Notes under the pieces: model-generated | Database searches by the model: none | What the model was told of the DNA's origin: nothing | Seen by the model: the letters and a program-made list of their open reading frames with translations, nothing else | Translations under genes and position numbers: made by a program | Shown: positions 13,910-55,421 of the stretch, in pieces | How positions within the stretch are numbered: position 1 is the stretch's first letter | Layout of the letters: each line of letters begins with the position of its first letter | Assembly (NCBI GenBank): GCA_020350725.1 | Contig: CP070719.1 | Location: 1,579,404 to 1,643,403 of the forward strand | Reading direction: 5' to 3' | DNA length: 64,000 bases | Source of the DNA: a bacterium | GTDB taxonomy: Bacteria > BMS3Abin14

Positions 13910-14042
13910 GGAGATCGGCCGTCAGAGGTCAGACGTCAGACATTTGGCGTCAGACATCAGAGATCAGACATTGGAGATTAGAGATTGGAGATTGGGGATT
14001 AGATAATAGAGGTCGGATATTGGAGATCAGACAGTTGGATAT
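13910..14042. repeat. tandem heptanucleotide array, 19 degenerate 7-bp units (GGAGATC / AGACATT / AGAGATT ...)
   Basis: Strict 7-bp register can be read off directly: ggagatc ggccgtc agaggtc agacgtc agacatt tggcgtc agacatc agagatc agacatt ggagatt agagatt ggagatt ggggatt agataat agaggtc ggatatt ggagatc agacagt tggatat. Confidence 0.85.
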
Positions 14043-24380: not shown

Positions 24381-24418
24381 GTGCTGCAAAGGGGCGCATG
24401 GGTGAGCGGGCGAGAATT

Positions 24419-24537
24419 TAGTGTCTAGAGTCTAGTGTCTAGTTCTAGAAACTAGGAACCAGAACCAGAAACGCTCTCTGTTGTTTGATCAATACTCTTG
24501 ACTTTTAGATTTTGGATTTTGGATTGTAATCTTGAAA
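24419..24537. repeat. two heptamer arrays in the glyQ-glyS spacer (TAGTGTC-type, containing a near-palindrome, then TTTTGGA-type)
   Basis: tagtgtc tagagtc tagtgtc tagttc tagaaac taggaac cagaac cagaaac (24419-24472), then ttttaga ttttgga ttttgga ttgtaat (24503-24530). ctagttctagaaactag is a near-perfect palindrome. Confidence 0.8.
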
Positions 24538-24555: not shown

Positions 24556-26625
24556 ATGACACGTGACCTGTTACTTGAGATCGGAACGGAAGAGATCCCG
24601 GCCAGCTACCTGCCGCCCGCCCTCGAGCAGATCCAGAGCCTGGCGGCCAGGGAGCTCACCGGCCAGCGCATCGCGTTCGGGAAGACGGCCGCATACGCCA
24701 CACCCAGGAGGATCGTCCTCCATATCACGGATGTAGCAGAGGCCCAGGAGACAAGCGTCAAGGAGGTCCTCGGACCGGCCAGGGCGGTGGCCTTCGATGA
24801 CAAGGGCAAACCCACCAAAGCCGCCGAGGGCTTTGCCAGGGGCCAGGGTATAACTGTCAAGGACCTGAAGACCGTCCAGACGCCCAAGGGGGAGTACGTG
24901 GCCGCCGTCAAGAAGGAGGCCAGCCAGCCCACCGCTGAGATCCTTCCCGCGATCATGCCCAGGATCATCACGTCCCTCCATTTTCCCAAGATGCAGCGAT
25001 GGGGGTATCTGAACCTCCGGTTCCCCCGCCCCATCCGCTGGCTTCTCTGTCTTTTCGGATCCGACGTCGTTCCCTTCGACCTGGAGGGGATCGAGTCGGG
25101 CCGGATGATGACCGGCCATCGTTTCATGGCCCCCGGGCCCTTCGAGATCAAGGACGTCAAGGATTATTTCCGCCAGGTCAAGAGGGCCAGGGTGGTTCTT
25201 GATCAGGACGAGAGGAAGGATATCATCCGTAAGGGTATCACCAAGGCAGCCGAGGAGGTGGGCGGAAAGCCCATCGAGGACGAGGCCCTGCTGGACGAGG
25301 TCACGTACCTCGTGGAATTCCCGGTTGTCCTCACCGGAACCTACGAGAAGAGGTATCTTTCCCTGCCCTGGGAGGTTCTGATCACCTCCATGAGTTCCCA
25401 CCAAAGGTACTTCTCGGTGACGAACAAGAGCGGCAAATTGCTGCCCTATTTCATTACCATCAGCAACAATGTGGCCAGGGACAACGCCCTTGTCGCCCAG
25501 GGGAACGAGAGGGTGTTAAGGGCCCGCCTCGAGGACGCCATGTTCTTCTTCGCTGAGGACAGAAAGATCCCCCTCATGACGAGGGTGGAGGAACTCAAGG
25601 ACGTGGTCTTCCAGGAGAAGCTGGGTACGTCCTACGAGAAGATGGAGCGCTTCCGTGCCCTGGCCCGGTACCTGGCGAAGAGGGTCGAGCCCGACAGCCT
25701 CGACGAGGTGAAAAAGGTGGCTACCCTGTGCAAGGGCGACCTGGTGACCCAGATGGTGGGTGAATTCGCCGACCTCCAGGGGGTCATGGGCAAGGAGTAT
25801 GCCCTGCTCGAAGGAGAGAGCAAGGTGGTCGCCCGGGGGATCAGCGAGCACTATTATCCCAAGTTCTCCGGTGACCGGACACCGGACACGGTGGGCGGCG
25901 CTGCGGTCAGTCTCGCCGACCGCATGGACACCGTGTGCGGCTGCTTCGGCATAGGCATCACCCCCTCCGGAACGGCGGATCCCTACGGTATCAGGAGACA
26001 CGCCCTGGCCATCATCGCCATCCTCATGGATCGGAAATGGAGGATCTCCCTTGCTGACCTGATGAAGGAGTCCCTGAAGCTTCTCAAGGGCAAGATCGAG
26101 GTGGCGCCAAAGGATGCCCTGGCGAGCCTGAGCGATTTCTTCAGGGGACGCCTCCAGCACCAGTTCACTGGACGGGGTTTCCGCCACGATCTGGTGCAGG
26201 CCGTTCTTGCCGACCACTGGGCAGACCCGGTGGACGCGGCCGATCGTCTCGACGCCCTGGCGAAGTTCTCCGAGAAGACCGGTTTCGCAGACCTGATCCT
26301 GTCCTTCAAGCGGGTGATGAACATCATCCCAGAGGGATTCCGGGGCAAACCGGACAAGAGGAAGGCCAGACACCGGGTGGAGAAGGACCTCCTCGACGCG
26401 GCCAGAGATGCCGGAAAGGACGTGGCCGGTTTGCTGGAGGCCGGCAAGTACACCCAGGCCCTCAACCGGCTGGCTAAGCTCAAAAAGCCGGTGGACGCCT
26501 TCTTCGACGGCGTCATGGTCATGGACAAGGACAGGTCCGTCCAGAAGAACCGCCTGGCCATCCTCCAGGAGGTTTCGGACCTGTTCGCCCAGGTGGCGGA
26601 TTTCAGGAAAGTGGTGACAGAGTAA
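24556..26625 (+). CDS. glyS: glycine--tRNA ligase beta subunit
   Basis: 689 aa. GlyS tRNA-binding arm and anticodon-binding domains. Immediately follows glyQ. Confidence 0.93.
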   Translation: MTRDLLLEIGTEEIPASYLPPALEQIQSLAARELTGQRIAFGKTAAYATPRRIVLHITDVAEAQETSVKEVLGPARAVAFDDKGKPTKAAEGFARGQGITVKDLKTVQTPKGEYVAAVKKEASQPTAEILPAIMPRIITSLHFPKMQRWGYLNLRFPRPIRWLLCLFGSDVVPFDLEGIESGRMMTGHRFMAPGPFEIKDVKDYFRQVKRARVVLDQDERKDIIRKGITKAAEEVGGKPIEDEALLDEVTYLVEFPVVLTGTYEKRYLSLPWEVLITSMSSHQRYFSVTNKSGKLLPYFITISNNVARDNALVAQGNERVLRARLEDAMFFFAEDRKIPLMTRVEELKDVVFQEKLGTSYEKMERFRALARYLAKRVEPDSLDEVKKVATLCKGDLVTQMVGEFADLQGVMGKEYALLEGESKVVARGISEHYYPKFSGDRTPDTVGGAAVSLADRMDTVCGCFGIGITPSGTADPYGIRRHALAIIAILMDRKWRISLADLMKESLKLLKGKIEVAPKDALASLSDFFRGRLQHQFTGRGFRHDLVQAVLADHWADPVDAADRLDALAKFSEKTGFADLILSFKRVMNIIPEGFRGKPDKRKARHRVEKDLLDAARDAGKDVAGLLEAGKYTQALNRLAKLKKPVDAFFDGVMVMDKDRSVQKNRLAILQEVSDLFAQVADFRKVVTE

Positions 26626-26631
26626 GCGGCT

Positions 26632-26750
26632 GGGTCAAAGGTCAAAGGGGAAAGGGGAAAGGTAAAAGGTAAAAGATAAAAGGTTAAAGGGGAAAGGATA
26701 AAGGGGAAAGGCGACCACTTTAACCCTTATCCTTTTCCCTTTACCCTTAT
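26632..26750. repeat. AAAGGGG-type heptamer array folded against its own inverse (imperfect long palindrome), copy 1
   Basis: ggtcaaa ggtcaaa ggggaaa ggggaaa ggtaaaa ggtaaaa gataaaa ggttaaa ggggaaa ggataaa ggggaaa gg, then a cgaccac loop, then tttaacccttatccttttccctttaccc, which is the imperfect reverse complement. Confidence 0.8.
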
Positions 26751-26783
26751 AAAAGGGCCCTTCGTGGCCCTTTATTTCTTTTC
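26751..26783 (+). terminator. rho-independent terminator (likely bidirectional)
   Basis: AAAA GGGCC cttcgt GGCCC TTTATTTCTTTT. GC stem of 5 bp flanked by an A-tract and a T-tract. Confidence 0.75.
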
Positions 26784-26784
26784 G

Positions 26785-26904
26785 GGAAAGTGGTGACAGA
26801 GCAGGTGGCAAGGGGAAGGGTAAAAGGTGAAAGGTTAAAGGGGAAAGGGGAAAGGGGAGAGGGGAGAGGCGTCCGCTTTAACCTTTATCCTTTTCCCTTT
26901 ACCC
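26785..26904. repeat. copy 2 of the glyS 3' end (22-bp match) plus an AAAGGGG-type palindromic heptamer element
   Basis: tttcgggaaagtggtgacagag (26780-26801) matches tttcaggaaagtggtgacagag at the glyS stop (26601-26622). It is followed by a second aaagggg/gagaggg array and an inverted arm tttaacctttatccttttccctttaccc. Confidence 0.8.
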
Positions 26905-26995
26905 TGATTAATTGATTTTGGATTCTCATTCCTTCCCTTGCCCCATCCCCCCTGATGCGGTTATATTCCTGTTACAATTTAACGGTAATCCAATC

Positions 26996-28144
26996 ATGGT
27001 GAGACTGGAGAGAGAAAAAAAGGAAGCCGGGGAACTGGCGCCCTATGCCGCCCTCAATTCCATGTCGAGGGGGCGCCTGCATCCGGAGGACGAGCACCCC
27101 ATCAGGCTTGCCTTCGAGCGGGACCGGGACCGGATCATCCACTGCAGTGCCTTCCGTCGGATGGAGTACAAGACCCAGGTCTTCTTCTACCACGAGGGTG
27201 ACTACTTCCGGACCCGGTTGACCCATTCCCTGGAGGTGGCCCAGATCAGCCGGTCGGCGGCTCTGGCGCTGGATCTCAACGAGGTGCTGGCCGAAGCGCT
27301 GGCCCTGGCCCACGACCTCGGGCATACCCCCTTCGGTCACTCGGGGGAGAGGGTCATGGACGCTCTGATGTCTGACGACGGGGGGTTCGAGCACAATCAG
27401 CAGACCCTGAGGGTGGTGGATCTCCTCGAATACCGCTACCCGCGGTTTCCCGGACTGAACCTCTCCTGGGAGGTGCGGGAGGGAATCGCCAAACACAGCA
27501 CGGACTACGACAATCCGGTGATCGCCTCCTTCGGGAACGCACAACCCAGCCTTGAGGCCCAGATCGTTGAACTGGCCGATGAGATAGCGTACAACAACCA
27601 CGATCTGGACGACGGCCTCACCTCGAGGATGATGGAGTTGGAACAGCTGGAGGATGTCACCATCTGGCGTGAGGTGGCGCACCAGATCAAGAGGGATCTT
27701 CCATCCATCAAGCCGTCCATGCTCAAACACGAGGCCATCAGGAGGATCATCAACTGGCAGGTCAGCGACCTCATCTCGAACATCGGCAAGGTCCTCGCAC
27801 AGCGGGGGATCGTGGACCGGCAGGGACTCGCCGAGGCCCGCGAGAGGGTGGCCGGCTTCAGTCCCGACATGGAGGTGATGAACCAGGAACTCAAGGAATT
27901 CCTCAGGGTGAACCTCTACCAGCACTTTCGAGTGATCCGCATGGCCCAGAAGGCACAGAGGATCCTCAGCGATCTCTTCACCGCCTACTGCGACATGCCT
28001 CAGCAGCTACCGCCCCAGTACTTCCGCCGGATCGAAAAGGAGGAGAGCGCCAGACGGGTCATCTGCGACTACATGGCGGGCATGACGGACAAGTTCGCCC
28101 TGGATGAACACAGGAAGCTTTTCGATCCCATGGAAAAGGTGTGA
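26996..28144 (+). CDS. dgt: dGTP triphosphohydrolase-like HD-domain protein
   Basis: HD motif HSLEVAQI...LAHDLGHTPFGH. dGTPase family architecture. ATG at 26996 lies within the longer ORF. Confidence 0.85.
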   Translation: MVRLEREKKEAGELAPYAALNSMSRGRLHPEDEHPIRLAFERDRDRIIHCSAFRRMEYKTQVFFYHEGDYFRTRLTHSLEVAQISRSAALALDLNEVLAEALALAHDLGHTPFGHSGERVMDALMSDDGGFEHNQQTLRVVDLLEYRYPRFPGLNLSWEVREGIAKHSTDYDNPVIASFGNAQPSLEAQIVELADEIAYNNHDLDDGLTSRMMELEQLEDVTIWREVAHQIKRDLPSIKPSMLKHEAIRRIINWQVSDLISNIGKVLAQRGIVDRQGLAEARERVAGFSPDMEVMNQELKEFLRVNLYQHFRVIRMAQKAQRILSDLFTAYCDMPQQLPPQYFRRIEKEESARRVICDYMAGMTDKFALDEHRKLFDPMEKV

Positions 28145-28590: not shown

Positions 28591-28806
28591 CAGCAGTCAG
28601 TAGACAGTATTCAGGATTCAGGAAAAGCTCCCCAAACAGCTACCGGAAAAATCAACCGGTTTTTTGAATTTAAAAACCATACAAAACGGGAACTTACAAA
28701 GCCTACTTAATATCTTACATTAAATTTTGCATGCCCGTTTTTCTCTTGACTGATGGATATTCCTGAATTCTGAATACCGACTACTGATTACTGAATCCTG
28801 ACTCCC
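28591..28806. repeat. inverted-heptamer-array-flanked AT-rich element (MITE-like or sRNA-like cassette)
   Basis: Left array tagacag tattcag gattcag (28601-28621). Right array ctgaatt ctgaata ccgacta ctgatta ctgaatc ctgactc (28763-28804) is its imperfect reverse complement. The core carries a 21-bp palindrome GGTTTTTTGAATTTAAAAACC (28658-28678) and a hairpin AAAACGGG...CCCGTTTTT (28683-28742). Confidence 0.7.
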
Positions 28807-28815
28807 GGTCCTAAC

Positions 28816-30039
28816 TCACACGCTCCTCCTCACCCCCCTCGGCCGCCAGGACGGCGGGATGATTCCGTTCGATCCACGCAGGTCCGGCAACTGGTCCGCA
28901 TACATGGCGGAGAACTCCCCGTACCGGTCATTGATAAGATCGAGGGCCCCCTGCAGGGAGTCCTCTTCTCTGTCGGCGGGGAAGAGGGATCCCTGCAGGC
29001 AGCCGAACCGGAGGTGGCTCAGTGAGATCCCCAGGAGGCGGATGGGCCTTACGATGGATACCGAATCCAGAATGGCCGACGCTGATCGGTAGATCCGGCT
29101 GGTGGTCCTGATCGGATGGGCCAGCGTCATCTGCCTCGAAAAGGTGGTGAAATCCCGGTAGCGTACGGTCAGTGTCACCCTGTTTCCGGCACAGTCGTGA
29201 CGGCGCGCCCTCCGTCCGACCATCTCCGAGAGGGTCAGGAGAACCCGTCGCGCGGTGACAAGGTCGGTGACATCGCGGGGCAGGGTTGCCGAATGTCCGA
29301 TGCTCTTGACCTTTTCGTTGCCCGCCCCCAGGGGCACGACGGGGGAATCCTCCTCTCCTCGTCCCATTCTCGAAAGGGTGTGTCCCAGGACACCGAATTC
29401 ACGGACCAGGATCTGCAGCGGGAAACGTCCCAACTGGCCGCAGGTCGAAATGCCCATGGATCCCAGACGGCGTTCGGTCTCCGGACCGATGCCGCACAGC
29501 TTTCCCACCGGCATGCTTTCCATGAGGTCCCTTACGTCGCCAGGGGCAAGGACCGACAGTCCATCGGGTTTTCTCCGGCCGCCGACCAGTTTTGCCAGCA
29601 GCTTGTTGGGACCGATCCCCACGGAACAGGTGAGGCCGGTCTCCTCCCGAATCCGTTCCTTGATCCTCCCCCCGAGGGTCTCAGCCCCCCCGAAACGGTT
29701 CAGATCGGTGGTCACATCCAGAAAGGCCTCATCGACGGAATAGGGCTCCACGAGAGGGGTGAAAGATTCAAGGATATCGATGATCATGGCCGAGACGTGA
29801 CTGTACTTCCGGTGATCACACCGGACTATGACAAGGGCGGGACACAGTTTCAGGCCCTGACCGAGAGCCATGCCCGTCCTGACGCCGAACTCCCTCGCCG
29901 CATAGGATGCGGTGGTGATGATGGTCCTCTGTCCCGGCCCGGCCACTGCCACCGGTTTGCCCCTCAGGGAAGGGTTGTCCACCTCTTCCACCGAGGCGAA
30001 GAAGGCATCCATGTCCACGTGGAGGATCACCCGGTTCAT
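28816..30039 (-). CDS. dinB: DNA polymerase IV (Y-family)
   Basis: N-terminal HVDMDAFFASVE catalytic motif. Full Y-family polymerase length (407 aa). Third gene of the lexA operon. Confidence 0.9.
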   Translation of the reverse strand: MNRVILHVDMDAFFASVEEVDNPSLRGKPVAVAGPGQRTIITTASYAAREFGVRTGMALGQGLKLCPALVIVRCDHRKYSHVSAMIIDILESFTPLVEPYSVDEAFLDVTTDLNRFGGAETLGGRIKERIREETGLTCSVGIGPNKLLAKLVGGRRKPDGLSVLAPGDVRDLMESMPVGKLCGIGPETERRLGSMGISTCGQLGRFPLQILVREFGVLGHTLSRMGRGEEDSPVVPLGAGNEKVKSIGHSATLPRDVTDLVTARRVLLTLSEMVGRRARRHDCAGNRVTLTVRYRDFTTFSRQMTLAHPIRTTSRIYRSASAILDSVSIVRPIRLLGISLSHLRFGCLQGSLFPADREEDSLQGALDLINDRYGEFSAMYADQLPDLRGSNGIIPPSWRPRGVRRSV

Positions 30040-30290
30040 ACCAGTTGCGCCACCTTCTCCAGGTACCAGGTGAGGGCCTCGCCGTCGAGGACGAGCTCAT
30101 ACAGGTCGGAACCGTCCGTCACCGTGAAGTGGTGGAGGATAGCGGAACCCCTCCTCTCCGACCAGGAGAAGGTGATCCCTGAAATACGGTATCTCCTTTT
30201 CCTCCAGATAAACCAGGCCGGACGCATTTTCCCGCCCGCACCGAAGACGGCGCCCACCACGACCCGCTCCTGGATCTCCTGGGCCATCAC
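30036..30290 (-). CDS. hypothetical 84-aa protein, translationally coupled between lexA and dinB
   Basis: 4-nt overlaps with both the lexA stop and the dinB start. Coding-like composition. No family recognised (MMAQEIQERVVVGAVFGAGG...HHFTVTDGSDLYELVLDGEALTWYLEKV). Confidence 0.55.
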   Translation of the reverse strand: MMAQEIQERVVVGAVFGAGGKMRPAWFIWRKRRYRISGITFSWSERRGSAILHHFTVTDGSDLYELVLDGEALTWYLEKVAQLV

Positions 30291-31057
30291 CGGGCGTTTC
30301 CCCCTTTGAGGATGCGGATAACGGCCTCGACCCTGCCCGCGATCCTGGTTGTCCCGGCATCCTCTCCGGTGAGGACGATGGCCGGGAATTCCGGATTGGC
30401 CGCCTCGAGAGCGATCCCGTCCCGGGTCCTTCGGAATCTCTTCAGGGTGGCTTCGTCGCCCACCACCGCGACCACGATGTCGCCGTCATATACTGTGGCC
30501 TGCGGTCTGACGAGGGCCAGATCCCCCGGCAAGATCTGTTCTCCCCGCATGCTGTTTCCCTTCACCCTGAGGAGAAAGTGATCCTGCCCAGCCAGGTTTT
30601 CATCGAGGTGGATGTAATCCTCCACCTCCTCGGCGGCAAGATCGAGGGCTCCGGCGGCCACCGATCCGACCACCGGAACAGGCACACCACCGGGCCCGTC
30701 GAGGGGTGAGGGGAACCGGGACAAAATCTCCAGGCCACGGGAGATACCGGGAATCCTCCTGATGAGCCCTTTCCGCTCCAGCGCCTCCAGGTGCTTGGCC
30801 GCAGCCCGCGGACCGGAGAGGTTCAGGTGATGGGCCAGTTCACGAACAGTGGGGGGATAGCCGTTCTCGGAAAGGAAGGTCCTGATATATGCCAGGACCT
30901 GTTGCTGTCTGGGTGTGAGTTCGTGCAAAAGGCCGCCCTCCCAATTATCAGATCTCCGACTCCATATCCGACAGGAATTCAAAGTCCACAGCCTGCCATC
31001 CGACTTTTCCACCGCTGCTATCAGCGAAGTTGGAAGCTTCACTTCAGGTGGGTCCAA
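30287..31057 (-). CDS. lexA: LexA repressor
   Basis: Winged-HTH LTPRQQQVLAYI...TVRELA. S24 peptidase catalytic Ser in GNSM and the Lys region (ATLKRF). Ala-Gly cleavage site (VAAGAL). ORF-track start is TTG at 31057. A more LexA-typical start is the in-frame TTG at 30928 (MHELTPRQQ), giving about 214 aa. Confidence 0.88.
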   Translation of the reverse strand: MDPPEVKLPTSLIAAVEKSDGRLWTLNSCRIWSRRSDNWEGGLLHELTPRQQQVLAYIRTFLSENGYPPTVRELAHHLNLSGPRAAAKHLEALERKGLIRRIPGISRGLEILSRFPSPLDGPGGVPVPVVGSVAAGALDLAAEEVEDYIHLDENLAGQDHFLLRVKGNSMRGEQILPGDLALVRPQATVYDGDIVVAVVGDEATLKRFRRTRDGIALEAANPEFPAIVLTGEDAGTTRIAGRVEAVIRILKGGNAR

Positions 31058-36621: not shown

Positions 36622-36749
36622 GGCTTCGGCAGATCCAGAATCCAAAGTCCAAAAAGTTAAAACCCATTGTACCTTGCATATAACGGCTCTAACTTTTTAC
36701 TTTTACCTTTTCACTTTCCACTGATTCCCGGTTTGACGTCGGGCGGTCG

Positions 36750-40464: not shown

Positions 40465-40558
40465 GATAACCCCCTTATTGGACAGTGGTCGGTGAAAGGA
40501 TCAACTCTGGAATGATCGGGCTAAGTCGAAAAAAGTCTATTAAAGTCAAATTGTTAAC

Positions 40559-40593
40559 TGGAAACTGGAAACTGGAAACGAGAAACTGTGTCG
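40559..40593. repeat. heptamer array CTGGAAA x3 + CGAGAAA in the acnB upstream region
   Basis: ctggaaa ctggaaa ctggaaa cgagaaa ctgtgtc, read directly from sequence. Confidence 0.8.
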
Positions 40594-43045: not shown

Positions 43046-43129
43046 TATATTTTCCTTTTCTTCTGGAGTTCTCTTTCAGCGCGGGTGGCATCATAGAGTA
43101 TTTTGGGTGGAATGGGAAGGGGGGTGCAG

Positions 43130-43157
43130 GTGATCGGTGATCTGTGATCAGTGATCG
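43130..43157. repeat. heptamer array GTGATCG x4
   Basis: gtgatcg gtgatct gtgatca gtgatcg. Confidence 0.8.
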
Positions 43158-43194
43158 GAAGAGACGGTTGAAACACCCAGAGCGACCGTGGTCT

Positions 43195-50043: not shown

Positions 50044-50882
50044 AAACGAGTTCGGCGGTGAAGAAGACCAGATCCACCTCCAGCAGCAGATCCGGGAAGC
50101 AGAGGTCTGGGGCGCACTGGATCAAGCTGGACGCCCAGGGCGTTTACTACAAGGACCTGAATCGGCAGATCCGGTCCCTGGCCCTTCAGGGAGATCGGAG
50201 GTTTGAGATCCACAACGTCTTCGGACAGCGTTACCTGGGTACGAACCTCTGGGGCATCGAGGGCCGGGACAGGATCGTGATCCGAGTATACGGCACGCCG
50301 GGTTCGGATATGGGGGCGTTCATGGACGGGCCCAGGATAGAGGTGTTCGGCAACGCCCAGGACGCCACCGGCAACACCATGAACTGCGGCCAGATCGCTA
50401 TCCACGGTTCCGCCGGAGATGTCCTCGGCTACGGCATGAGGGGGGGCGAGATCTACGTCCGGGACAACGTGGGGTACCGGGTCGGCATTCACATGAAGGA
50501 ATACAGGGATAAAATCCCGACGGTGGTCATCGGTGGCACGATGCAGGATTTCTTCGGGGAATACATGGCCGGAGGGAGGATCATCGTACTCAACAAGTTC
50601 TTCGCCGACAACCCCCCCGTTCGGAGGAGCTATTTCATCGGCACGGGGATGCACGGCGGCAATATCTACGTCCGCGGTGACGTGGACCTGCACCAGATCG
50701 GCGCGGAGGTCGGAATCGCCAGTCCCACGGATGCCGAGTGGAAGATCATCGAGAAATATGTGCACAATTTCTGCAAGGTCTTCGGGCTGGAGGAGAACAA
50801 GGCCAAACTCCTCAAGAGGCACAAGTTCACTCGATTATATGCCAAATCGTCCAGGCCATACGGCAGGCTGTATGCATACTGA
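50040..50882 (+). CDS. glutamate synthase GXGXG-domain subunit
   Basis: Repeated GXGXG beta-helix motifs (GTPGSDMGAFMDGPRIEVFGNAQDATGNTMNCGQIAIHGSAGDVLGYGMRGG). ATG at 50040 overlaps the previous stop (ATGA). Confidence 0.85.
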   Translation: MKTSSAVKKTRSTSSSRSGKQRSGAHWIKLDAQGVYYKDLNRQIRSLALQGDRRFEIHNVFGQRYLGTNLWGIEGRDRIVIRVYGTPGSDMGAFMDGPRIEVFGNAQDATGNTMNCGQIAIHGSAGDVLGYGMRGGEIYVRDNVGYRVGIHMKEYRDKIPTVVIGGTMQDFFGEYMAGGRIIVLNKFFADNPPVRRSYFIGTGMHGGNIYVRGDVDLHQIGAEVGIASPTDAEWKIIEKYVHNFCKVFGLEENKAKLLKRHKFTRLYAKSSRPYGRLYAY

Positions 50883-50952
50883 GGACTGAGTACTAAGGAC
50901 TAAGGACCAGGTGCTGATAGCTGAGTGCTGAGTATTGGACACTGGAAACTGA
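50883..50952. repeat. heptamer array (GGACTGA / GGACTAA / GTGCTGA ...), 10 units
   Basis: ggactga gtactaa ggactaa ggaccag gtgctga tagctga gtgctga gtattgg acactgg aaactga. Confidence 0.8.
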
Positions 50953-54776: not shown

Positions 54777-55002
54777 TTTTAATCCAATCCAAAATCCAAA
54801 AAAAAGCTCCGAAAACAAGGATTTGAGGTTGGAAGATCCTTCTGAATCAGGGATCTCAAGTCCGTCCGCCGCCCCATCAGCTCCCATCTGAGTTGAAAGA
54901 TTAAGCGATAAGATAGGTTCAATTTCTCAGGAAGTATTAACCGGGTCAACCTTGTGTTTTTTGGATTTTGGACTTTGGATTTTAGATCTGGAAATCTGAT
55001 GG
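54777..55002. repeat. heptamer arrays (AAAATCC-type, then TTTGGAT-type) downstream of tag and of the DUF4031 gene
   Basis: ccaatcc aaaatcc aaaaaaa ... (54784-54867) and ttggatt ttggact ttggatt ttagatc tggaaat (54961-54995). Confidence 0.7.
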
Positions 55003-55330: not shown

Positions 55331-55357
55331 AATTCGTGGAATCAGGTCCGGTTCCCG

Positions 55358-55385
55358 CTTTGGACTTTGGATTTTGGAATTTGGA
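55358..55385. repeat. heptamer array CTTTGGA x2, TTTTGGA, ATTTGGA upstream of the DUF4031 gene
   Basis: ctttgga ctttgga ttttgga atttgga. Confidence 0.8.
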
Positions 55386-55421
55386 TCATTGAGGGGGTTG
55401 TTCTGAAGGGTGTCCGCAGAG

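Follow-up and report, generated by a model that had tools for sequence, protein, structure and literature searches.

The stretch of DNA analysed here (the window, 64,000 nt) contains glyS, encoding the beta subunit of glycyl-tRNA synthetase, followed by a gene for a dgt-like dGTP triphosphohydrolase (Table 1). GlyS ends in ...ADFRKVVTE*, with the stop at the same position in all relatives. The genes around the locus, mgtE, recO, glyQ, glyS, dgt, dinB, lexA and smc, are all housekeeping genes. No transposase, integrase or reverse transcriptase was found among the flanking genes scanned (approximately 5 kb on either side). The host represents a deep-branching uncultured lineage. Its GlyS shares no more than 50% identity with that of any other lineage found, the closest being Desulfuromonadales and allied MAGs.

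Table 1. Features of the region from glyS to dgt, with positions given in the window.
Feature	Position	Strand	Description
glyS	24556..26625	+	glycyl-tRNA synthetase beta subunit; intact frame; Pfam PF02092 tRNA_synt_2f, E 1e-209
DR1	26601..26622	+	TTTCAGGAAAGTGGTGACAGAG; last 22 nt of glyS; stop TAA directly after, 26623-26625
Unit 1 linker and left array	26626..26711 (array 26633-26711)	+	linker GCGGC; about 11 AAAGGNN heptamers
Unit 1 loop and inverse arm	26712..26751 (arm 26719-26746)	+	loop CGACCAC; TTTNNCC x4
glyQS intrinsic terminator (predicted)	26752..26783 (stem-loop 26752-26773, plus tail)	+	AAAGGGCC-CTTCGT-GGCCCTTT, tail ATTTCTTTTC
DR2	26780..26801	+	TTTCGGGAAAGTGGTGACAGAG; non-coding copy of the glyS 3' end; A to G at position 5
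Copy of stop codon and linker	26802..26809	+	decayed; CAGGTGGC in the window, TAGGTGGC in L080, TAAGCGGC in unit 1
Unit 2 left array	26810..26869	+	about 8 heptamers; period-7 AAAGGNN
Unit 2 loop and inverse arm	26870..26911 (arm 26877-26904)	+	loop CGTCCGC
Unit 2 tail	up to 26911	+	TGATTAA; end of homology to unit 1
Spacer	26912..26995	+	79/88 identical to sister species
Promoter-like site	26938-26967	+	TTGCCC-18-TATATT; upstream of dgt
dgt-like gene	26996..28144	+	dGTP triphosphohydrolase (HD and HD_assoc domains); downstream neighbour

In brief, the 3' end of glyS is present twice. DR1 and DR2 are identical at 21 of 22 positions, start 179 nt apart and are separated by 157 nt, in agreement with the initial annotation, which placed a copy of the last 22 bp of glyS about 180 bp downstream. 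A search for the 22-mer with up to three mismatches gave these two as the sole matches in the 64 kb, and no match in 100 shuffles. The parts described earlier, a 22-bp copy followed by an array and its inverse, are all there, but the homology does not end with the 22-mer; it runs on through the stop codon, linker, array, loop and inverse arm to the motif TGAT(A/T)AA. The duplicated block, approximately 130-155 nt, begins with the last 22 nt of glyS and takes in the stop codon, linker and heptamer hairpin. Outside the arrays, units 1 and 2 differ at 9 of 72 positions (12.5%), and 27 of the 28 positions of the inverse arm are identical. These are collinear copies made of several parts, with similarity beyond chance, as in a local direct segmental duplication. 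The proposed segmental duplication of the glyS 3' end with its heptamer hairpin is thus a true one, seen in two independent assemblies. The arrangement is not a head-to-tail tandem duplication of 179 nt, as a second terminator is absent and unit 2 joins the conserved dgt spacer. The octamer CAGGTGGC, found before DR1 and after DR2, was considered as a junction signature and rejected: the second assembly has TAGGTGGC there, and point changes from TAAGCGGC suffice.

The inverse arm of both units, 28 nt long, reads TTTAACC(C/T)TTATCCTTTTCCCTTTACCC, and its motif can be written as TTTAACCYTTATCCTTTTCCCTTTACCC. Each unit is predicted to fold into a hairpin of about 33 bp (unit 1, -40.2 kcal/mol, z -2.5; unit 2, -41.8 kcal/mol, z -3.7), and in unit 1 the arm is paired with the 4-5 closest heptamers of the left array. 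Covariation is weak, with one compensatory pair in 25 among five close sequences. A search of Rfam 15 gave no match at the gathering score, the only matches being sub-threshold ones to generic hairpins (microRNA precursor). We did not find the hairpin module elsewhere in the 64-kb window; both copies are at the glyS locus.

Heptamer arrays as such are common. The window holds 11 arrays at period 7, all in spacers, versus none at lags of 4-6 and 8-12 and none in shuffles. Some of them form inverted pairs, and the spacers of the lineage contain almost nothing but period-7 arrays, which often flank terminators in inverted pairs. As tandem intergenic 7-nt units, enriched over other periods and varying in number between strains, these arrays belong to the STRR-like class. 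A function through G-quadruplexes was considered and rejected: at the locus, unit 2 of the window is the sole place with a canonical four-tract motif (26840-26864), and the other assemblies, L080 and L081, lack it. G-quadruplex motifs are not enriched in the window, with 7 found versus 5.6 in shuffles.

Between the two units lies a putative Rho-independent terminator, recognised by its GC stem-loop, its T-run, its place at the end of the operon and its conservation in relatives. It folds with -13.1 kcal/mol (z -3.3), and a GGGGCCC-N4-GGGCC stem with a T-run is found at the same place in about ten relatives. The terminator (approximately 25 nt, 26752-26779) is the only part that is not duplicated, and the last TTTC of its tail doubles as the opening 4 nt of DR2. 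A GC-stem/T-tract terminator between the copies had been described before, and as bidirectional; the terminator is found again by prediction, but bidirectionality is not supported by the terminator scan, which made a call on the plus strand only. On the minus strand the stem is followed by TTTTAT, and both neighbouring genes are on the plus strand. Unit 2 sits between the terminator and the promoter-like site of dgt.

A second, independent assembly of the same species (L080; Logan, SRR31444229) has both units on one contig, with an identical GlyS and different array versions. Four copy-specific differences are common to the window and L080: TTCAGG/TTCGGG, GCGG/GTGG, loop ACCAC/TCCGC and arm AACCC/AACCT. 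The duplication therefore predates the split of the two strains. L080 carries the same copy of DR2 with one additional A to G change, its second-copy stop codon reads TAG where the window has CAG, and one heptamer has been lost from its unit 2 arm. The window and L080 differ at three places in unit 2 and at one in unit 1, and the higher divergence of unit 2 fits relaxed constraint. The window, L080 and L081 encode the same GlyS protein, yet each has its own version of array 1, with a different number and content of heptamers; the species is sampled by two to three assemblies, and the array versions may partly reflect assembly of a mixed population. Both additional assemblies are short-read: the L081 contig ends inside array 1 and the L080 contig just after unit 2. 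An exact look-up of the Dgt protein gave no further contigs, and the GlyS cluster at 90% has three members only.

The sister-species sequences (L008, L091 and L092; GlyS approximately 90% identical) have one unit and the terminator, followed by an unrelated spacer and no second copy. More distant relatives (about ten; L001 and L083-L090) likewise lack a second copy, with glyS followed by the array and the terminator. This restricts the duplication to the one species. The unrelated sister spacer shares two residual matches with unit 2, the hexamer GTCCGC and the nonamer GGATTTCAG, which we treated as chance. A search of the window for the displaced sister-species spacer matched other arrays with its heptamer part only. 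Comparison with relatives had been set beforehand as the test that could refute the duplication; with an unrelated spacer in the sister species and the duplication in the conspecific assembly, it dates the event and does not refute it. The adjacent spacer differs between the window and the sister species at 9 of 88 positions (10%). Judged by these sequence distances, 12.5% between the copies versus 10% between the species, the duplication would be roughly as old as the species itself.

The proposal that the modules are dynamic and are copied with their flanks stands in its first part only. Array variability is seen in the three versions of array 1, and a CCAAAGT array also varies among the sister-species sequences, which are short-read contigs. 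Copying of flanks as a general behaviour found no second case: the duplicated unique flank is absent from the nine other array-bearing spacers in the window and from eight related loci (approximately 60 kb of related sequence), and neither set holds another duplication of a gene 3' end with a palindrome.

We consider it likely that the second unit arose by a one-off, species-specific local duplication, through replication slippage or template switching beside the hypervariable heptamer repeats. It is general background that, in bacteria, short direct repeats close to hairpins give rise to duplications through slipped misalignment or template switching, a mechanism treated in reviews by Lovett. 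Like such duplications, the glyS case is a local direct copy with its junction at a short motif (TTTC), beside a palindrome and microsatellite-like arrays. It differs from a clean slippage product in that the terminator is single and an extra step is required.

The suggested course of events is as follows. The ancestor would have been arranged like the sister species today, with glyS, one AAAGGNN hairpin, the glyQS terminator, a spacer of approximately 140 nt and the dgt promoter. The block of about 130-155 nt would then have been copied once, to the position directly after the T-tail of the terminator, replacing the ancestral spacer. This may have happened when replication slipped or switched template between two TTTC motifs, one opening the 22-mer and the other in the terminator tail, with the long hairpin and the repeat arrays stimulating the error; a 4-nt TTTC microhomology would fit the left junction. 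Simple tandem copying of 179 nt would have doubled the terminator, so that one must assume either a further step or a single but complex event. A second switch or a later deletion could have removed the second terminator and the old spacer, and unequal recombination would be an alternative route to the same product. The junctions are too diverged for the event to be reconstructed.

As unit 2 is outside the glyS frame and downstream of the terminator, translation of the copy is not expected, and transcription would occur by read-through only. The copy is decaying: its stop codon went from TAA through TAG to CAG, and its 22-mer has gathered A to G changes. Both arrays probably gain and lose heptamers by slippage, and possibly exchange them. 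We suggest that the rearrangement is ordinary and probably neutral, with no predicted effect on glyS.

Alternatively, the duplication may have arisen by error and then been kept because a second hairpin brings a benefit: it might back up the terminator against transcripts reading through from glyQS into dgt, serve as a platform that stabilises RNA or binds proteins, or act as a spacer insulating the dgt promoter. Unit 2 dates back to about the time of speciation and its predicted hairpin is still strong, its inverse arm is nearly identical to that of unit 1, and arrays beside terminators are, as a class, conserved throughout the lineage. The well-preserved unit 2 arm could mean selection or gene conversion, and conversion from unit 1 would explain the preservation equally well. 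Moreover, a single unit with a different spacer is enough in the sister species, unit 2 is the more variable unit between strains, with a heptamer lost from the L080 arm, and the copied coding fragment is decaying together with its stop codon. We therefore regard retention for a function as rather unlikely, and the neutral local duplication remains our preferred reading.

A broader version holds that the heptamer hairpins of the lineage spread by copy-and-paste, for example by hairpin-stimulated template switching, and can carry adjacent unique sequence with them. If so, glyS would be the one instance in which the carried flank is still recognisable, and the process would explain the abundance of period-7 arrays and inverted pairs across the lineage and offer a route by which gene 3' ends are reshaped. 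We consider this quite improbable.

The initial annotation also offered a mobile mechanism that duplicates its target site. Here a non-autonomous element, consisting of the TAA, unit 1 and the terminator, would have inserted at the end of glyS and generated a target-site duplication of 22 nt. It is true that direct repeats flank a 157-nt segment with a long palindrome, and that heptamer arrays abound in the genome, in part as inverted pairs. Nevertheless, the homology continues outward past the 22-mer into unit 2, so that the whole 130-155-nt unit is repeated, and a target-site duplication would need the element to insert beside a resident copy of itself. An array and a terminator directly follow glyS in all relatives; unit 1 and the terminator are therefore ancestral and there is no empty site. 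Target-site duplications are usually far shorter than 22 nt. Nor is the structure MITE-like, as the sequence after DR2 is homologous to the supposed insert and both of the two copies in the 64-kb window are at this locus. With no transposase nearby and no second such case, the mobile mechanism did not hold up, and we regard it as very improbable.

Integrative elements and diversity-generating retroelements both yield a second copy of a gene 3' end downstream, and retroelements often have a hairpin after the repeat. The second 22-mer might on these grounds be an attL/attR remnant of a deleted integrative element, or one of the template and variable repeats of a retroelement. However, neither an integrase nor a reverse transcriptase is encoded within approximately 5 kb on either side, and the repeat is 22 nt long, in a housekeeping gene, where the repeats of retroelements are at least about 100 nt. 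Only 157 nt lie between the copies, and these are homologous to the sequence after the second copy. The A in the gene versus G in the copy is the reverse of the adenine-in-template pattern of retroelements. Either origin is most improbable. Finally, an assembly artefact of low-complexity repeats is barely conceivable: the short-read contigs of L080 and L081 do break in or beside arrays, but the genome behind the window is a single contig of 2.78 Mb, the assembly of a separate run has both units on one contig, and units that differ at 12.5% of their non-array positions do not come from a collapsed or re-used read path.

Heptameric repeats of the STRR type in cyanobacteria were reportedly described by Mazel et al. 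in 1990. Other heptameric repeats are GGGNATC/GGGGAYT in Xanthomonas and Nostoc (PMC4692102) and TAACTGA in the Beggiatoaceae (PMC4679880). All three groups resemble the arrays of the window in being tandem 7-nt units confined to non-coding DNA, whereas the units of the window differ in sequence and form a G-rich array followed by its own inverse arm, in a hairpin of about 33 bp. Another difference is that G-quadruplex potential is not conserved in the window arrays.

Geobacter metallireducens, which has a related deltaproteobacterial-type genome, carries repeat sites of classes 1-3 (Gmet_I sites), with units of 7-9 nt in 3-5 copies, paired on opposite strands (PMC2700814). In the text available of that paper, the Gmet_I sites are, like those of the window, short tandem units in intergenic inverted pairs at variable distance, but they have other consensus units, are read as protein-binding sites and come with no report of flank duplication. 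Co-duplication of a gene end is not mentioned in the accessible parts of the sources for the Xanthomonas/Nostoc, Beggiatoaceae (PMC4692102, PMC4679880) or Geobacter repeats. The glyS module can also be compared with REP/BIME elements, being an imperfect palindrome between a stop codon and a terminator, whose stable RNA hairpin could protect the upstream mRNA. REPs are dispersed, near-identical units of 20-40 nt, often with a RAYT transposase. The glyS module differs in its tandem heptamers, its single locus in the window and the absence of a RAYT gene within 5 kb.

On its own the finding carries little weight: it is a small duplication, dated and inherited, at the edge of an essential gene, and the gene remains intact. 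It does show that the heptamer arrays of this lineage change between closely related strains. More promising is the wider picture: the spacer arrays of the lineage resemble the unexplained heptamer repeats found in cyanobacteria, Xanthomonas and Beggiatoaceae, and could be a further system in which the role of such repeats may be approached.

The glyS gene (Pfam tRNA_synt_2f, E 1e-209) ends in the codons ...GAT TTC AGG AAA GTG GTG ACA GAG TAA. The 22-mer preceding the stop codon (DR1) reappears downstream as DR2, as the initial annotation had stated, with one mismatch (21/22 match) and a start-to-start distance of 179 nt. With up to three mismatches permitted, DR1 and DR2 are the sole matches in the window, and matches were found in 0/100 dinucleotide-preserving shuffles. 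DR1 and DR2 are followed by unit 1 and unit 2, respectively, each consisting of a stop codon (decayed to CAG in unit 2 of the window), a linker, an AAAGGNN heptamer array, a loop of 7-8 nt and an inverse arm. A terminator lies between the units. Arrays, inverse arms and terminator had also been described correctly.

Coordinates of features in the window
Feature	Position	Strand	Details
glyS	24556-26625	+	
DR1	26601-26622		
DR2	26780-26801		
AAAGGNN period-7 array, unit 1	26633-26711		
AAAGGNN period-7 array, unit 2	26810-26869		
28-nt inverse arm, unit 1	26719-26746		TTTAACC(C/T)TTATCCTTTTCCCTTTACCC
28-nt inverse arm, unit 2	26877-26904		TTTAACC(C/T)TTATCCTTTTCCCTTTACCC
Stem-loop and T-run between units		+	AAAGGGCC-CTTCGT-GGCCCTTT, then ATTTCTTTTC; terminator scan
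Octamer CAGGTGGC	26590-26597; 26802-26809		immediately 5' of DR1; immediately 3' of DR2
G-quadruplex motif, canonical	26840-26864		GGGGAAAGGGGAAAGGGGAGAGGGG, in unit 2
Promoter-like site of dgt, conserved	26938-26967		3' of unit 2
dinB and lexA, adjacent	28816-31057	-	just 3' of dgt
Period-7 arrays	13920-14039, 24416-24525, 28595-28623, 28763-28803, 36690-36717, 40548-40588, 43127-43159, 50877-50933, 54786-54989, 55356-55387		
(NNTTGGA)n arrays	22309, 24512, 31053, 36641, 54788, 54961-54979, 55360-55385		in at least 7 spacers
Inverted heptamer-array pair	28591-28624 / 28760-28793		34 nt, 85% complementary, between convergent genes
Inverted heptamer-array pair	54788-54803 / 54957-54972		16 nt, 100% complementary

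Each unit is predicted to form a hairpin of ~33 bp (unit 1, -40.2 kcal/mol, z -2.5; unit 2, -41.8 kcal/mol, z -3.7). All of the copies available (5/5) preserve a hairpin consensus of 25 pairs, in which a single compensatory change was seen. The terminator folds at -13.1 kcal/mol (z -3.3); its structure itself is symmetric, with A4 on the upstream and a T-run on the downstream side of the stem. Its designation as bidirectional is not supported, since the scan calls the + strand only and both neighbour genes are co-oriented.

Alignment of the two copies extended the homology beyond the 22-mer, through stop codon and linker (TAAGCGGC vs CAGGTGGC), array, loop and arm, up to TGAT(A/T)AA, 3' of the inverse arm. 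The duplicated block is thus ~130-155 nt, varying with array length, and the ~25-nt terminator alone is single-copy. The linker octamer of unit 2 also occurs next to DR1. Another assembly of the same species (L080) reads TAGGTGGC at the second site, and the octamer pair is therefore probably a chance product of point changes from TAAGCGGC.

The window is part of one contig (2,777,263 bp) from an uncultured bacterium, encoding GlyS (UCF29945.1) and, next downstream, the dGTP triphosphohydrolase-like Dgt (UCF29946.1). An exact-protein look-up found identical GlyS in two independent assemblies, L080 (SRR31444229) and L081 (SRR31444205), the contig of the latter stopping within array 1. In L080 the entire region lies within one contig, in the order DR1, TAA, array, loop ACCAC, arm, terminator, DR2 (TTTCGGGAAAGTGGTGGCAGAG), TAG, GTGGC, array, loop TCCGC, arm and dgt spacer. 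The retained TAG confirms that the stop codon was within the copied block. The window and L080 have unit-specific substitutions in common (TTCAGG/TTCGGG, GCGG/GTGG, ACCAC/TCCGC and AACCC/AACCT), indicating that the duplication was inherited and predates the split of the two strains. An assembly artefact is thereby ruled out.

A scan of species-representative genomes gave only three close GlyS relatives, L008 (90%), L003 (88%) and L001 (77%); all others were at most 50% identical, mainly from Desulfuromonadales and allied lineages. Nine extra metagenome contigs of the lineage were found with a degenerate glyS 3'-end pattern, and two extra sister-species contigs (L091, L092) were taken from the protein cluster. 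The sister species (L008, L091, L092) has glyS-TAA, one unit, the terminator, a ~140-nt spacer and the conserved dgt upstream region. Its unit is short and the same in all three, with four heptamers per arm; its spacer is unrelated sequence and carries a variable (CCAAAGT)n array. More distant relatives have glyS-TAA, then a heptamer array of different units (TCTCAGA, TTCAAGA and TCCAAGA among them), a GGGGCCC-N4-GGGCC-type terminator with its T-run, and a second array. No second glyS-end copy was found in the glyS loci of the sister species or the more distant relatives; the duplication is species-specific. From the single-unit layout of the relatives, unit 1 and the terminator are ancestral, and we infer that unit 2, as an insertion or a replacement, is derived and confined to the species of the window. 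Units 1 and 2 differ at 9/72 non-array positions, and window and sister species at 9/88 positions of the adjacent conserved spacer, making the duplication roughly as old as the species.

Two other variants were seen near glyS. At ~2205-2210 of L092, near the glyS 3' end, an in-frame stretch of 33 nt (11 codons) is missing relative to L008; natural variation or faulty assembly could account for it. The other concerns L003 (6095-6700), and also L082 and L084: in L003 dgt no longer adjoins glyS, and a short AAAGGGG array is followed by a segment starting AAAACCTTGTCTCACGCAAAGCTCGCTAAGCACGCAAAGAA, with GTCTCACG recurring farther along. This segment looks like an inserted element.

We favour a replication error as the putative origin of unit 2. 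Slipped misalignment or template switching would produce the second copy, with the left junction at TTTC, a motif of both the glyS sequence and the tail of the terminator; the second terminator and the old spacer would have been lost in a further switch or a subsequent deletion. Junction divergence is too great for proof of this step. A clean tandem duplication of 179-nt period is ruled out because there is only one terminator. The initial annotation also proposed a mobile, target-site-duplicating route. This fails, since the sequence beyond DR2 is homologous to the supposed insert, unit 1 and the terminator are already present in relatives, and usual target-site duplications are far shorter than 22 nt. 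The neighbour genes (mgtE, recO, glyQ, glyS, dgt, a small haem-binding-like gene, dinB, lexA and smc) include no transposase, integrase or reverse transcriptase; dinB (Pol IV, IMS family) and lexA are seemingly an ordinary SOS pair. Within the 64 kb, no copy of the hairpin module and no AAAGGNN array was found outside the glyS locus. The proposal that other modules are copied with their flanks did not hold, as no duplicated unique flank or gene-end plus palindrome was found in the other array-bearing spacers of the window or in eight related loci. That modules spread by copy-and-paste, able to carry flanks, is very improbable.

The suggestion that the heptamer modules are dynamic was borne out. 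Array 1 occurs in three versions among the three assemblies with identical GlyS, two of which are short-read contigs that break at heptamer repeats. It has two GGTCAAA units on its 5' side in the window (26631-26650), three in L081 (2178-2205) and none in L080, which has additional unit differences. Array 2 is not alike in the window and L080, with 3-4 GGTCAAA units in the latter (2236-2265), where one heptamer is gone from the second inverse arm. The GGTCAAA position shift hints at exchange between paralogous arrays, or independent origin.

The window holds tandem arrays at period 7 only, 11 in number; periods 4-6 and 8-12 gave none, and neither did shuffles. Each of the 11 is in an intergenic spacer, and the unit sequence changes from spacer to spacer. 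Such arrays number 38 in 77 kb of the close lineage vs 10 in 657 kb of distant relatives, ~30x more per kb in the former. The motif TTGGANNTTGGA gave 10 matches vs 0.14 expected; it occurs in 11 loci, all of this lineage (L001, L003, L008, L084-L088, L091, L092 and the conspecific L081), and in 0/76 distant glyS loci. These counts suggest that (NNTTGGA)n is a lineage-specific dispersed motif, possibly a candidate binding site. Two inverted array pairs enclose a spacer of 135-153 nt, an array-plus-inverse design as at glyS with a long interior. The G-quadruplex motif of unit 2 is missing in L080, and such motifs are not enriched in the window; a role was rejected, its potential not being conserved. 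No Rfam family matched the locus. Heptamer repeats of a similar kind are the STRR repeats of cyanobacteria. Others on record are GGGNATC/GGGGAYT repeats of Xanthomonas and Nostoc, which sit close to stop codons, are found on the sense strand and vary in unit number (PMC4692102), TAACTGA heptamers in Beggiatoaceae (PMC4679880) and, in Geobacter metallireducens, tandem sites that form inverted pairs (PMC2700814).

Unit 2 lies between the terminator and the dgt promoter-like site and should thus be largely untranscribed. Its stop codon has decayed (TAA to TAG to CAG), and between strains it varies more than unit 1; both observations would fit a neutral unit 2. It is possible that unit 2 is kept for a function, or that it is homogenised by gene conversion. 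No consequence is predicted for glyS itself, and its case adds one more instance of phenomena already known: a short segment duplicated locally, next to hypervariable simple-sequence repeats.
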